Shown: piece by piece, positions 3,707-37,023 of the stretch
How the letters are laid out: the number at the start of each line of letters is the position of its first letter
Numbering within the stretch: the first letter of the stretch is position 1
NCBI GenBank assembly: GCA_013349695.1
Contig: DUZD01000002.1
Location: forward strand, 1-37,184
From: Rhodospirillaceae bacterium
Lineage (GTDB): Bacteria > Pseudomonadota > Alphaproteobacteria > Rhodospirillales > 2-02-FULL-58-16
Direction of reading: 5' to 3'
Length of the DNA stretch: 37,184 bases
Translations under genes and position numbers: made by a program
Notes under the pieces: model-generated
Database searches by the model: none
Told to the model about the DNA's origin: nothing
Seen by the model: the letters and a program-made list of their open reading frames with translations, nothing else

Positions 3707-3753
3707 GTAATATTGGCAAAACACCGGCCTGCCCGGTGTTTTGCCAATATTAC
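3707..3753 (-). terminator. Intrinsic terminator-like hairpin downstream of the rhodanese gene
   Basis: Perfect 21-bp stem (3707-3727 / 3733-3753) with a 5-nt loop (cctgc). On the minus strand it is followed by TTGTTTTCAAATTGG. It lies between the rhodanese stop (3797) and the AT-rich oxidase-operon upstream region. Confidence 0.6.
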
Positions 3754-4912: not shown

Positions 4913-6145
4913 GTGAATCGGAAGCAGCGGCGCCGGATGGCGAAACGGCAACGCCCGGGAGCGCCGGCGGCGACGGATCGGCTGTTGGACGAGGCGTTGG
5001 AGCAGCACCGGGCCGGGCGGCTGGACAAGGCCAAGGTCCTCTACGAGGACGTCCTCTCGGCGAAGCCGGACGATGCCGGCGCCTTGCACTTCCTTGGCGT
5101 TCTTGCCCACCAGCAGGGAGACCACGAGGAGGCATACCGGCTCATCAGCCGGGCGATCGCCGCCGACGGCCGCCAACCCGCCTTTCATGACCACCAGGGC
5201 GTGGCCCTGCGCTGGATGGGACGGACAGGCGAAGCCGAAGCCGCCCACCGCCGGGCCATCGAACTCGACCCCGGTTTCGCCGCCGCCTATGTCAATCTGG
5301 GTAACACCCTGGGCGTTCGGGGCAGGCTGGAAGAAGCGGAAACGGCCTTCCGGCGCGGCCTCGAACTCAATCCCGCCGACGCCGGCGCCCATAACAACCT
5401 CGGCAACACCTTACGGGTGCGGGGCAAGCTGACCGAGGCGGCCGACGCCTACCGCGGGGCCTTGGAGCTCAATCCGGATTTCGCCAAGGCCCATTCCAAC
5501 CTTGGCGCCATTTTGCGCGAGTTCGGCGACTTCCAGCAAGCCGAGACCGCCTGCCGGCGGGCCATCGAGCTCGATCCGGGCTACGCCGACGCCTATAACA
5601 ACCTGGGCAACGTCTTGATGGCGATGGAAAGGGTGGAAGAAGGAGTCGAACGTTACCGCCAAGCCGTCGCCTTCGATCCCAACTCCCCCTTGCTTTTGTC
5701 CAATCTGGGTGGCGGTTTGACCACCCTCGGACGGCTGGATGAAGCGCAAACCATGTTCCGCCGCGCCATCGAAATGAACCCGGATTGCGCCGAGGCGCAC
5801 AACGGGTTGGGGGTGGTCATGCTCTCTCAGGGCAAGACCGAGGAAGCCTTGGCCAACTATCGAAAGGCCCTCGCCATCAAGCCGGATTATGTGGACGTCT
5901 TCTACAACATGACGAACTCGGGGCGGGTCGAATTCGCCGCCGGCGAATTACGCCGGATCGGGGAAATGCTCGCCGACAACGGTCTCTCCGATGAAGCCAA
6001 GGCCAAACTTCGCTTCGCGCTCGCCGAGCACCATGCCCGCCGGGGCGAAATCGATACCGCTTTCGACCTATACCGGCAGGGCAACGAAGCGCGGCGGCAA
6101 GCCCTGGCGGCGGCGGGCCGCCGTTACGATGGCGCCTCGCAGTAG
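4913..6145 (+). CDS. TPR-repeat protein (N-terminal part of a TPR-sulfotransferase architecture)
   Basis: 410 aa with at least 8 recognisable 34-aa TPR units (…A..Y..AIELDP..A.AY.NLGN…). GTG start at 4913 has GGAGAGGGAAAGG upstream. It ends at TAG 6143-6145. Confidence 0.8.
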   Translation: MNRKQRRRMAKRQRPGAPAATDRLLDEALEQHRAGRLDKAKVLYEDVLSAKPDDAGALHFLGVLAHQQGDHEEAYRLISRAIAADGRQPAFHDHQGVALRWMGRTGEAEAAHRRAIELDPGFAAAYVNLGNTLGVRGRLEEAETAFRRGLELNPADAGAHNNLGNTLRVRGKLTEAADAYRGALELNPDFAKAHSNLGAILREFGDFQQAETACRRAIELDPGYADAYNNLGNVLMAMERVEEGVERYRQAVAFDPNSPLLLSNLGGGLTTLGRLDEAQTMFRRAIEMNPDCAEAHNGLGVVMLSQGKTEEALANYRKALAIKPDYVDVFYNMTNSGRVEFAAGELRRIGEMLADNGLSDEAKAKLRFALAEHHARRGEIDTAFDLYRQGNEARRQALAAAGRRYDGASQ

Positions 6146-15659: not shown

Positions 15660-15772
15660 ATTTGGAAATTCGGTGACAGCATACTTAATTCGCGCCCCCT
15701 TGCGGCGGACAGAGATGGAATTTCAGTAATCCCTGATATTGAATTAAGTATGCTGTCACCGAATTTCCAAAT
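15660..15772. repeat. AT-rich 32-bp perfect inverted repeat with 49-nt loop (element A)
   Basis: ATTTGGAAATTCGGTGACAGCATACTTAATTC (15660-15691) is the exact reverse complement of 15741-15772. Its last base is the first base of the pfkB stop-codon triplet (15772-15774). Confidence 0.9.
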
Positions 15773-16614: not shown

Positions 16615-16636
16615 TCGCCCGCCGCGCCCCCCGCTC

Positions 16637-16899
16637 ATACCAAGGATCGACGATAATGACCCATAGAGACGGTTTCCCAAGGCTTTCGGCTAGGAGTGCG
16701 CGGCGTGGCGATGCGGGGCATCGCGAGACGGGCACGACGACGTCCGAAAGCCTTGGGAAACCGCCGTTCCGGTCGCCTCGGCGCCCCGTCGGAGGGCGTC
16801 GAAAAGTCTTGACGATGTGCCGCATCGCCGGCAACTTTTCTCCTACCCGACGGGGCGCCGAGGCGATCTCTATGGGTCATTATCATCGATCCTTGGTAT
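16637..16899. repeat. 263-bp nested-palindrome intergenic element (element B)
   Basis: 33-bp terminal inverted repeats (16637-16669 / 16867-16899, one C.A mismatch) enclose two 94-nt hairpin units in inverted orientation. These are 16670-16763 and 16773-16866, each closed by a perfect 20-bp stem and separated by a 9-nt spacer. Confidence 0.9.
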
Positions 16900-17348
16900 T
16901 ATCCCTTCTTTTCCCAGCCGCCGCTGTCGGTCTGCTGCCAGTACGTCAGTTCGTGGCCCGTTTCCTTATAGGCCTTCCAGCATTTCCGCGCCGCTTCGAC
17001 AGCCGCCGGATCGTTGCCGTCGAACAGCTCGAAACAGCGCTCGTAATCGCCGACGCGCTCGGAGGCCGCGCCATCGGTCAGAAACAGGAAAGTGGCGCCG
17101 TTAGGGGTTTCGTCGCCGATCGCAAGCCAGATCGGCTGGTCTTCGGCGTTGCCATCCTTGCCGCCGCCGTGAGGAAGCCAGGAACCCTGTTCGTAGGTCC
17201 AGAGCAGCGAATTCAGGGCCTCGACCCGTTGCGTGGATCCGGCGACGACAACCGCCCGTTTGCCTGTTGCCAGGGTTTTTTCCAGAAGCTTGGGCAAGGC
17301 CGCCTCCAGAGATGATTTCGTCAGGTGGTAAAAAGCGATTTCGGTCAC
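16899..17348 (-). CDS. holC: DNA polymerase III chi subunit
   Basis: MTEIAFYHL...RAVVVAGSTQRVEALNSLLWTY...WLPHG is typical HolC, 149 aa, directly downstream of pepA. Confidence 0.85.
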   Translation of the reverse strand: MTEIAFYHLTKSSLEAALPKLLEKTLATGKRAVVVAGSTQRVEALNSLLWTYEQGSWLPHGGGKDGNAEDQPIWLAIGDETPNGATFLFLTDGAASERVGDYERCFELFDGNDPAAVEAARKCWKAYKETGHELTYWQQTDSGGWEKKG

Positions 17349-34880: not shown

Positions 34881-35906
34881 ATGACCGTCGAGGCGAATGG
34901 AAGCGAAAAACCGTTGGCCCTGACCATGGGCGAACCCGCCGGCGTCGGCGCGGAAATCGCCCTCAAGGCCTGGCAAGGCCGGAATGGCGGCACGCCCTTG
35001 TTCTTTCTCCTCGATGATCCGCCCAGGCTCAGACGTCTGGCCGAACATCTCGGCCTCGACATCTCCATCCGCGATATTGACTCGCCCGCCGAGGCGGCGG
35101 CGGTATTTTTTTCATGCCTGCCGGTTTTGCCCCGTCCCTTGGCCGCCGATCCGGTTCCGGGGCAACCGGATCCCGCCAATGCAAACGCCGTTCGCGGCGC
35201 CATCGAGGCCGCCGTCCGGCTTGTTCAATCGGGAGAGGCCGGCGCCGTTGTCACCAACCCCATTGACAAGCGGTGTCTCCACGCGGCCGGTTTTCCCTTT
35301 CCCGGCCATACCGAGTTCCTGGCCGCCCTCTCCGGAACCAACAGCCGGCCAGCGATGATGCTGGCTAACCCGGAGCTGCGGGTGGTCCCGGTCACCGTGC
35401 ATTTGAGCCTGGACCAAGCTGTCAAGGCGCTAACCCCTCGGGATATCGTGGAAACGGCGACGGTCGCGGAAGCGTCGTTGAAACGGGATTTCGGCATCCC
35501 CGAGCCGCGGCTGGCGGTGGCCGGGCTTAACCCTCACGCCGGCGAAGGCGGCATCATGGGCGCCGAGGAAGGATCGATCATCGAGCCCGCCGTCGCCCTG
35601 CTGCGGCAACGGGGCATCGATGTTTTCGGCCCGGTATCCCCCGACACCCTCTTTACGGCTCTAGCGCGCCAACGATACGACGCCGCCATCTGCATGTATC
35701 ACGATCAGGCCCTGATCCCGGTCAAGGCTATCGGCTTCGAAGAGACCGTCAATGTTACCCTGGGCTTGCCGTTCGTACGCACCTCGCCCGGCCACGGCAC
35801 CGCTCTCGACATCGCCGGCACGGGCCAAGCCAGCGCCGCAAGTCTGGCCGCCGCCTTGAGCATGGCGGCGGCGATGGCGCGGCGCCGCGATGCCGGCAAT
35901 CCCTGA
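34881..35906 (+). CDS. pdxA: 4-hydroxythreonine-4-phosphate dehydrogenase
   Basis: ATG 34881 (MTVEANGSEKPLALTMGEPAGVGAEI), GHTEFLA and HGTALDIAG motifs. The earlier part of the track ORF overlaps the surA 3' end. Confidence 0.9.
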   Translation: MTVEANGSEKPLALTMGEPAGVGAEIALKAWQGRNGGTPLFFLLDDPPRLRRLAEHLGLDISIRDIDSPAEAAAVFFSCLPVLPRPLAADPVPGQPDPANANAVRGAIEAAVRLVQSGEAGAVVTNPIDKRCLHAAGFPFPGHTEFLAALSGTNSRPAMMLANPELRVVPVTVHLSLDQAVKALTPRDIVETATVAEASLKRDFGIPEPRLAVAGLNPHAGEGGIMGAEEGSIIEPAVALLRQRGIDVFGPVSPDTLFTALARQRYDAAICMYHDQALIPVKAIGFEETVNVTLGLPFVRTSPGHGTALDIAGTGQASAASLAAALSMAAAMARRRDAGNP

Positions 35907-36176
35907 GAGCCCGTCCGGGGAGTTATTGATGTTTCTCAATGCCTTGTGTTTTTGTTCCGGTAGGAGGCGGGGGCGCCGTGATGCCGGCGCATCACAAGCG
36001 CCCGCCGACGCCCCGGAGCGGAAACACAAGGCACCCAAAGGGCGGGCTGGAAGGGCGCCCCTGCCGCGTCCTGGAGCCTCGACGATGCTCCGGCATCGCC
36101 TTCGGCCCCACTCCTTGCATTGGCGCCCTTCCAGCCCGTTGAGAAATATCAATAACTCCCCGGTCGGGCTCTGAGG
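35902..36176. repeat. 275-bp nested-palindrome intergenic element (element C), same architecture as element B
   Basis: 38-bp terminal inverted repeats (35902-35939 / 36139-36176: 35 Watson-Crick pairs, 1 G.T, 2 mismatches) enclose two hairpin units. These are 35940-36033 (94 nt) and 36043-36138 (96 nt), separated by a 9-nt spacer. The left repeat contains the pdxA stop codon. Confidence 0.9.
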
Positions 36177-36183
36177 CCGGACC

Positions 36184-37023
36184 TTGTCCGCGCCTGTCTC
36201 TCTGCCTCCCCTGCGCAATGTCATCAAGCGCTTTCGCCTCGGTGCGCGGCGCTCCTTGGGGCAGCATTTTCTCCTCGACCTCAATCTTTGCGCACGGATC
36301 GCCCGCGCCGCCGGCGACATTTTCGGAAGCACCGTCATCGAGGTCGGCCCCGGCCCCGGCGGCTTGACGCGGGCTCTGCTGGACGCCGGCGCCGCCAAGG
36401 TGGTCGCGCTGGAACGGGACGAACGTTGCGTCGCCGCCCTTGCGGAGCTTGCCGCCGCCTATCCGCGACGCCTGGAAATCGTGGAAGGAGACGCCTTGGA
36501 GACCGATCTGGCCGGCCTTGCCCGCCCGCCGCGGCGCATCGTCGCCAATCTGCCCTATAACATCGCCACGCCTTTGCTGATCGGCTGGCTTCGGCATATC
36601 GGCGATTTCGAAAGATTGACGCTGATGTTCCAGAAAGAAGTCGCCGCCCGCCTCGCCGCCCGTCCCGGGACCGGGGAATACGGGCGGCTTTCCGTCATCA
36701 CCCAGTGGTTGTGCGAGGTTCGCCGCGAATTCAACGTCGGCGGCCGCGCTTTCACCCCGCCGCCCAAGGTCGCATCGACCGTGGTCACCCTGAACCCGCG
36801 TCCAAAACCACTGGCCCCGGCCGCCTGGGACGCCTTGGAAACGGTGACCGCCGCCGCCTTCGGCCAGCGCCGCAAGATGCTGAGGTCGAGCCTGAAACCG
36901 CTATGCTTGGAGCCGCGAGAACTGGGCATTGATCCGACCAAACGGGCCGGGGAATTGACCGTCGAGGAATTTTGCGCCCTGGCCCGGCGGCATAAACAAG
37001 GGCTCTCGTCGCGTTCTCTTTGA
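36184..37023 (+). CDS. rsmA: 16S rRNA (adenine1518/1519-N6)-dimethyltransferase
   Basis: LGQHFLLD, VIEVGPGPGGLTRALL, NLPYNIATPLL. TTG start 8 nt after element C. Confidence 0.9.
   Translation: MSAPVSLPPLRNVIKRFRLGARRSLGQHFLLDLNLCARIARAAGDIFGSTVIEVGPGPGGLTRALLDAGAAKVVALERDERCVAALAELAAAYPRRLEIVEGDALETDLAGLARPPRRIVANLPYNIATPLLIGWLRHIGDFERLTLMFQKEVAARLAARPGTGEYGRLSVITQWLCEVRREFNVGGRAFTPPPKVASTVVTLNPRPKPLAPAAWDALETVTAAAFGQRRKMLRSSLKPLCLEPRELGIDPTKRAGELTVEEFCALARRHKQGLSSRSL

Follow-up and report, generated by a model that had tools for sequence, protein, structure and literature searches.

Small, non-coding transposable elements of the miniature inverted-repeat type (MITEs) such as Correia/NEMIS, ERIC, RUP and Chunjie are multicopy, intergenic, bounded by terminal inverted repeats and flanked by short TA-containing duplications, and such hairpin MITEs are co-transcribed with neighboring genes as stable RNA hairpins (PMC2229807; PMC10969869). 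Repetitive extragenic palindromic sequences (REPs) are simple hairpins of 20–40 nt whose unpaired tag, GTAG or CGTC, immediately adjoins the stem; they occur mostly as head-to-head dimers downstream of genes (PMC3733652). In CGTC REPs, the tag is followed by an 8–9-bp stem starting with A-T pairs, a 4–5-nt loop and a CCA tail (PMC3733652, Di Nocera et al. 2013). RIME of Rhizobium and CIR of Caulobacter are described as two-armed palindromic intergenic repeats of about 108–110 bp, with GANTC sites in CIR (PMC2229807). Here, we analyzed 37,184 nt of a Rhodospirillaceae genome (assembly GCA_013349695.1, contig DUZD01000002.1), in the following called the window, to which our survey of the source genome was confined. 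It contains two intergenic palindromic elements, B and C, each built from two hairpin units.

We consider it probable that B and C are two copies of a widespread non-coding MITE family that inserts at stop codons, forms its hairpins probably as RNA and is moved in trans by a DDE transposase. Several features support the assignment to MITEs: terminal inverted repeats, a short target duplication, empty orthologous sites, small size, lack of coding capacity and multiple copies in other assemblies. The family thus resembles Correia/NEMIS, ERIC, RUP and Chunjie in being small, non-coding, bounded by terminal inverted repeats, multicopy and intergenic, with a TA-containing duplication. It differs from them in that conservation peaks outside the terminal repeat, in a pair of strand-specific inner hairpins with a covarying purine-rich loop, in that these inner modules are common to subfamilies with unrelated terminal repeats and to two phyla, and in that insertion is predominantly into stop codons with a T-N-A duplication. 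In the literature examined, we found neither inner-module conservation nor stop-codon insertion for those MITE families. With RIME and CIR the elements share the form of a two-armed palindromic intergenic repeat in Alphaproteobacteria; their greater length (261 bp for B, 265 bp for C) and the absence of GANTC probably set them apart, going by summary descriptions of RIME and CIR. The family is apparently undescribed, with no account of it in Rfam or the literature searched, RIME and CIR being compared by description. An earlier first-pass annotation, made from the letters of the window, had likewise suspected an undescribed composite class. A MITE whose inner hairpins are conserved above its terminal repeats and which lands in stop codons would be a model for mobile DNA in compact, operon-rich genomes.

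Elements B and C and their relatives

The first-pass annotation had delineated four units of about 94 nt with a conserved core at 16670–16763 (+), 16773–16866 (−), 35940–36033 (+) and 36043–36138 (−), and these coordinates proved right. A covariance model of the hairpin unit, R2, built on 86 non-redundant relatives, scored the four units at 61–80 bits, the next best match anywhere in the window reaching 14.6. Their shared core reads AGGAG-N11-G[C/T]GATGC-N4-5-CATC-N13-GACG, and the pattern AGGAG-N11-GYGATGC occurs four times in the window, compared to 0.38 occurrences expected from shuffles. Each unit is 94–96 nt long and consists of three helices and two internal loops, with a closing stem of 20–22 bp. 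The units are paired head-to-head within the larger elements B (16638–16898, 261 bp) and C (35907–36171, 265 bp), which are enclosed by inverted repeats pairing 16637–16669 with 16867–16899 (B) and 35902–35939 with 36139–36176 (C). The terminal inverted repeats measure 32–33 bp in B and 33–38 bp in C. The overall identity between B and C is only about 55%, and both have the same predicted fold, made of an outer stem and two long arms with a 9-nt mini-hairpin between them (whole-element folding z-scores −16.3 for B and −14.8 for C). In such folding models, a single strand of the element is shown to take the form of a Y or an X. Both B and C lack stop codons over nearly their full length (87 and 88 codons) in one or more of the six frames, plausibly by chance at this G+C content. 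The features of both elements are given below; L-numbers here and in the following are labels of compared loci from other genomes.

16635..16637, no strand assigned: left flanking trinucleotide of B (plus strand TCA, minus strand TGA), which repeats the target duplication imperfectly (empty site in L227: gggaTAAacgggggg)
16638..16669, no strand assigned: left terminal inverted repeat of B, TACCAAGGATCGACGATAATGACCCATAGAGA; 33-nt arms, 97% complementary; conserved in L005, L008, L016 and L028
16670..16763, plus strand: hairpin unit B1, alpha type (ACGG start including the preceding base); R2 79.5 bits; perfect 20-bp closing stem
16764..16772, no strand assigned: central 9-nt spacer of B, CCGTTCCGG; a mini-hairpin of 3 bp lying at B's dyad axis
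16773..16866, minus strand: hairpin unit B2, beta type (ATCG start including the preceding base), head-to-head with B1; R2 75.3 bits; perfect 20-bp closing stem
16867..16898, no strand assigned: right terminal inverted repeat of B, from the inverted-repeat search
16899..16901, minus strand: target-site TTA, the TAA stop codon of holC (open reading frame (ORF) 16899–17348 (−), DNA polymerase III chi); empty site in L227
35904..35906, plus strand: pdxA stop codon TGA, which serves as the left-hand copy of C's target duplication, from the empty-site comparison and flank survey
35907..35939, no strand assigned: left terminal inverted repeat of C, GAGCCCGTCCGGGGAGTTATTGATGTTTCTCAA; first 13 nt agree with IS1182-family ends (GAGCCCGTCCGAG; L276, L292) at 12/13 positions
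35940..36033, plus strand: hairpin unit C1; R2 70 bits; near-identical copy in L013
36034..36042, no strand assigned: central spacer of C, CCCAAAGGG, between C1 and C2
36043..36138, minus strand: hairpin unit C2, head-to-head with C1; R2 61.3 bits
36139..36171, no strand assigned: right terminal inverted repeat of C, from the inverted-repeat search
36172..36174, no strand assigned: right TGA copy of the target duplication of C; the rsmA start codon TTG follows at 36184, 9 nt further on

We scanned a collection with one genome per species for the core pattern and identified at least 119 loci in bacterial genomes, a count that is a lower bound. Among the matches listed, the majority belong to Alphaproteobacteria (Rhodospirillales, Kiloniellales, Inquilinus, Sphingopyxis and Rhizobiales) and a few to Acidobacteriota; the copies from Rhizobiales and Acidobacteriota fold like B and C. 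The core pattern had no match in 2.9 million viral contigs, and blastn of B against the PLSDB plasmids found none, while a rhizobial member of the family matched two of 72,556 plasmids in PLSDB, neither of them from Sinorhizobium. The elements of the family are about 260–275 bp long and non-coding, with terminal inverted repeats of 31–42 bp and hairpin modules of about 95 nt on either side of an 8–10-nt G+C mini-palindrome. Nearly all units in the compared loci are accompanied, at a distance of about 104 nt, by a partner, and the order is always plus, then minus; the arrangement of inverted pairs inside long terminal repeats, first seen in the window, therefore holds throughout the family in head-to-head form.

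The closing stems had initially been described as different each time. This is correct for the comparison of B with C, but across genomes the stems are conserved within subfamilies: the B1 stem, the B2 stem and the terminal repeat of B recur little changed in L005, L008, L016, L028 and others. Because stems and repeats differ between B and C and are kept within subfamilies across genomes, we assign B and C to two subfamilies. Many subfamilies retain one unit with an ACGG start and one with an ATCG start. Several genomes contain multiple near-identical copies on different contigs, often at contig ends, which suggests that metagenome assemblies are broken by these elements; searches for small RNAs or terminators in Rhodospirillales-like genomes can be misled by them as well. 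Family copies adjoin unrelated genes, and when the ORFs at the 119 loci were clustered, the sole recurrent neighbors were generic gene families and spurious ORFs that overlie the element.

In some versions, the second arm has diverged. In L003, L061, L086 (Inquilinus limosus), L073 and L078, the second arm is a longer, diverged hairpin. A one-armed form with a single unit inside a CTAG-flanked terminal repeat was found in Holophagaceae, Acidobacteriota (L052:4735–4905). The second arm of the Inquilinus copies contains a GANTC (CcrM-type) site, which B and C lack; this site may link the family to the Caulobacter CIR repeats.

Target sites, stop codons and a candidate mobilizer

Target duplications were evaluated in 39 complete elements. 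Perfect 3-bp direct repeats flank 16 of them, all of the form T-N-A (TAA, TTA or TGA) and often in the context C-TNA-G, while other subfamilies are flanked by C-TA-G, that is, TA within CTAG. In 10 of these 16 elements, the duplication coincides with the stop codon of an ORF at least 60 codons long, and in seven with that of an ORF of at least 120 codons, for which chance, given this G+C content, is estimated at about 5%. Contact with stop codons is explained by the T-N-A target: TAA and TGA are both of this form, and duplicating them leaves the gene with a stop. The link to gene 3′ ends that had been proposed for the palindromes of the window was thereby confirmed. Terminator hairpins, suggested as the target at the same time, were rejected; the duplicated trinucleotide is usually the stop codon itself.

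The ends of C read GAGCCCG...CGGGCTC, with TGA on either side. The corresponding pdxA–rsmA junction in L121 is empty and reads ..gattccTGAgactccggtgtccg, and the window with C removed reads ..aatcccTGAggccggaccttgtccg. For B, locus L227, whose HolC is 85% identical, has an empty holC–pfkB site with a single TAA (gggaTAAacggggggcgcagcaggcgaATG). The minus strand of the window at this position reads gggaTAA[261 bp]TGAgcggggggcgcggcgggcgaATG, with TGAgcgggggg as the right flank. The empty site in L227 shows B to be an insertion at the holC stop codon, the copies of its duplication now differing at one base. Among the loci of relatives compared, all 80 for rsmA and all 41 for holC, orthologous to those in the window, lacked a unit. 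Judged by these comparisons of occupied and empty sites, B and C are insertions. The ancestral pdxA stop codon and the rsmA start codon (TTG at 36184) are 9 nt apart, which places C inside a tight operon junction. C is therefore the test case in the window for whether paired ends rejoin stop and start codons in RNA and for how such insertions avoid operon polarity.

A possible source of the transposase was found at one of the loci in the form of a 1.5-kb insertion sequence (IS) encoding a 440-aa product with DUF772, DDE_Tnp_1 and DDE_Tnp_1_6 domains. This transposase scored 380 bits against the IS1182-family model NF033551 (cut-off 270 bits). There are 80 related IS copies, all ending in CTAG followed by GAGCC[T/C]GTCCGAG[T/A]AAT. 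Of the outer 13 nt of C (GAGCCCGTCCGGG), 12 agree with the IS1182-family ends. Agreement is even better for the Acidobacteriota elements (GAGCCTGTCCGCGAAT), and the ends of L022 and L020 match as well. The IS1182 family and C with its relatives thus have the GAGCC[T/C]GTCCG terminus and CTAG-type insertion sites in common. They differ in that the IS is about 1.5 kb long, encodes the 440-aa DDE transposase and lacks the hairpin unit (R2 detected none within the IS of L018), whereas the elements are non-coding and 261–275 bp long. One alphaproteobacterial metagenome-assembled genome (CAXXKO01), itself rich in hairpin elements, carries at least 24 identical copies of the IS, five of which sit exactly in the terminal CTAG of an element; two further IS1182 members are placed in the same way. 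The element ends therefore act as insertion hot spots. Together with the end match of C, these IS copies make an IS1182-type DDE transposase acting in trans the likely mobilizer, and we infer that the family is likely mobilized by transposases of IS1182/IS5-type ISs. IS1182-family ISs of about 1.5 kb, always flanked by CTAG, were observed at L018:3947–5476, L241–L320, L112:5742–7325 and L024:2134 to the contig end.

The hairpin module and its interpretation

Covariation within the hairpin unit was assessed in 146 aligned units, which contain 550 double changes. The covariation score was 0.521, compared to 0.175 in shuffled alignments (none of 500 column shuffles reached the observed value) and 0.07–0.12 in slid controls; the hairpins covary strongly. 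The tip helix, seemingly invariant, covaries too, with the variants GCGATGC, GTGATGC, GCGTAGC and GTGGTG.

Position-by-position counts in 124 non-redundant units revealed a conserved, purine-rich internal loop with a fixed order of pairs: G-C comes first, G·A second, A·G or C·A third, and G-C or A-T last. The G25-C71 pair is present in 123 units and G26·A70 in 117. Positions 27/69 are A·G in 101 units, C·A in 21, C·G in one and A·A in none, and positions 28/68 are G-C in 105 and A-T in ten. The conserved 5′ motif is AGG[A/C][G/A], with invariant A24, G25 and G26, and it pairs with [C/T][G/A]ACG. The conserved GTAG-type tetranucleotide first proposed for this site was not recovered: positions 22–23 are variable (GC, GT, CT, CA, CC, TT), and only 32 of the 124 units have [G/C]TAG.

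On the AGGAG strand, the inner helix has 91 G·T versus 15 A·C, and the basal stem 137 versus 56. In the outer stems, formed by the terminal repeats, there are nine G·T versus 13 A·C and many other mismatches; these stems have no such bias, nor was there a strand bias relative to gene direction. Because mutation alone should give equal numbers of G·T and A·C, only the fold of the AGGAG strand is under selection, while the terminal repeats, with their many mismatches and lack of bias, behave like ordinary double-stranded transposition signals. These substitution patterns show that selection acts on the single-stranded fold of every hairpin module, with a fixed polarity, and this folded strand is probably RNA.

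The conserved loop looks like a candidate binding or processing site for a factor. By comparison of consensus motifs, it does not seem to fit K-turn, hammerhead, loop E or attC. The AGGAG motif is probably not a Shine-Dalgarno sequence, as its common variants AGGCG and AGGAAG covary with the opposite strand and the next start codon is about 200 nt away. Rfam yielded no match in the window at gathering thresholds, and at permissive E-values only sub-threshold, chance-level hits at B.

Several observations weigh against a MITE family moved by an IS1182-type transposase and acting through RNA. The duplication at B is imperfect, with one mismatch between TAA and TGA. The B-type (TACCAAG) and TACCCAC-type terminal repeats are unlike the IS1182 ends found, the terminal repeat of B being unrelated to them, and no IS with B-type ends was present among the ISs compared. 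The flanks differ too, CTAG being found around the IS and the 3-bp T-N-A duplication around C and many of its relatives. The G·T strand bias is equally compatible with single-stranded DNA hairpins. A scan for sigma-70-type promoters found none in B or C, and a terminator scan of both elements gave only terminator-like matches at chance level; an inward-facing promoter in each terminal repeat, considered as a further possibility, was dropped on the same grounds. The gene-proximal unit has no significant score advantage over the distal one (9 versus 4), and alpha and beta units occupy the gene-proximal place at random (8 versus 6).

Some of these points would be expected if the same MITE used its hairpins at the DNA level, extruded as single-stranded DNA or cruciforms in replication or transposition and serving the transposase or a host DNA protein as binding sites or structural aids. 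The G·T excess fits DNA as well as RNA, the head-to-head layout provides one sense unit per strand, no promoter was found in B or C, and the IS1182 copies exactly at element ends suggest that these ends are sensed by the transposase or in its choice of target. Yet the IS itself has no hairpin unit, and we know of no IS5/IS1182-type DDE transposase that needs subterminal hairpins. Frequent position-specific G·U pairs and the exchange of A·G for C·A are, moreover, more typical of RNA motifs. We therefore regard DNA-level hairpins as unlikely, though as an alternative to be taken seriously. The hairpins might also be free-standing structured non-coding RNA genes, each a small RNA that is intergenic by happenstance. 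Strong covariation including non-Watson-Crick pairs and conservation across two phyla would fit such genes, but the lack of promoters and of terminators above chance level, the lack of an Rfam family match, the location inside terminal repeats with target duplications, the absence from the orthologous sites of relatives and the multiple copies beside unrelated genes would not, and we give this explanation hardly any credence, the least of those considered.

Also very improbable, though slightly less so, is the organization that the first-pass annotation had suggested, in which GTAG-tagged REP-like hairpins are cut as single-stranded DNA by a REP-associated tyrosine transposase (RAYT, of the Y1 HUH type) and the pair forms a REPIN. 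The elements do resemble REP, BIME and REPIN sequences as palindromic units in inverted, head-to-head dimers downstream of genes, their strand-specific folding is as in HUH substrates, some copies have GTAG or CTAG before GAG, and REP dimers nested in longer palindromes are on record (PMC3733652). However, the GTAG is not conserved, and the unit of 94 nt with two internal loops is too long for a hairpin class of 20–40 nt. The long terminal inverted repeats and the T-N-A or TA duplications are equally at odds with it. HUH/RAYT single-strand transposition makes neither terminal inverted repeats nor target duplications. The ends of C, by contrast, match a DDE insertion sequence. An identity with CGTC REPs was rejected too, as the antisense CGTC is followed here by G, a variable 7-bp helix and a second loop. 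No ORF resembling a RAYT, whose gene is typically single-copy and flanked by the repeats, was detected in the compared loci: tblastn over about 1 Mb of DNA flanking the 119 loci gave two weak hits to unrelated ORFs, a weak test because the query was an approximate sequence of E. coli YafM.

For a MITE with hairpins acting as RNA, the following mechanism can be proposed. An IS1182/IS5-type DDE transposase would move the element in trans. Insertion at T-N-A, usually a stop codon, duplicates this trinucleotide; the gene retains its stop, and the element now opens the 3′ untranslated region (UTR) or an intercistronic spacer. Its folded form would be RNA in the read-through transcript of the upstream gene. 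Owing to the head-to-head layout, the first module past the stop codon would be in sense in either landing orientation, and with the first hairpin always in sense, both units could have been kept under sense-strand selection over the history of the family. Tight folding with paired ends would bring the stop codon on one side close to the start codon on the other, with little RNA left unstructured, which would limit polarity and make insertion compatible with operons. The folded module might then offer a binding or processing site for a host factor. More tentatively, the hairpin could be the true payload of the element: a hitherto unrecognized structured RNA motif, or less likely a single-stranded DNA motif, that is recognized by a conserved host factor and works in cis as a 3′-UTR or intercistronic module, installed precisely at stop codons in either orientation by a DDE vehicle in both Alphaproteobacteria and Acidobacteriota. 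We consider this extension possible but doubtful; if it is true, the element would not be junk DNA but a mobile device for post-transcriptional control or insulation.

Other repeats in the window

A third palindrome, element A (15660–15772), immediately follows the stop codon of a pfkB-family kinase gene and consists of 32-bp inverted arms that pair perfectly around a 49-nt loop. A, B and C had been grouped as palindromic elements touching a stop codon; all three indeed adjoin one, but A is unrelated to the B/C family, and R2 did not match it. Compared with the closest relative, L227, A is a local insertion of 43 nt, the first 27 nt of which are the reverse complement of the sequence just downstream. 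The insertion extends an 8-bp inverted repeat (GGAAATTC/GAATTTCC) to 32 perfect bp. Because a local reverse-complement copy extended a pre-existing 8-bp repeat, A looks like a template-switch inverted duplication and not a member of the mobile family.

Two further repeats were observed. The A+T-rich intergenic region beside a gene encoding a rhodanese-domain protein contains, at 3707–3753, an inverted repeat of 21 perfectly matched bp around a 5-nt loop (GTAATATTGGCAAAACACCGG / CCGGTGTTTTGCCAATATTAC), possibly a terminator-like hairpin or some other small repeat. At 5232–5642, four tandem copies of about 102 nt lie within the ORF 4913–6145 (+) and encode 34-residue tetratricopeptide (TPR) repeats, an ordinary protein repeat.

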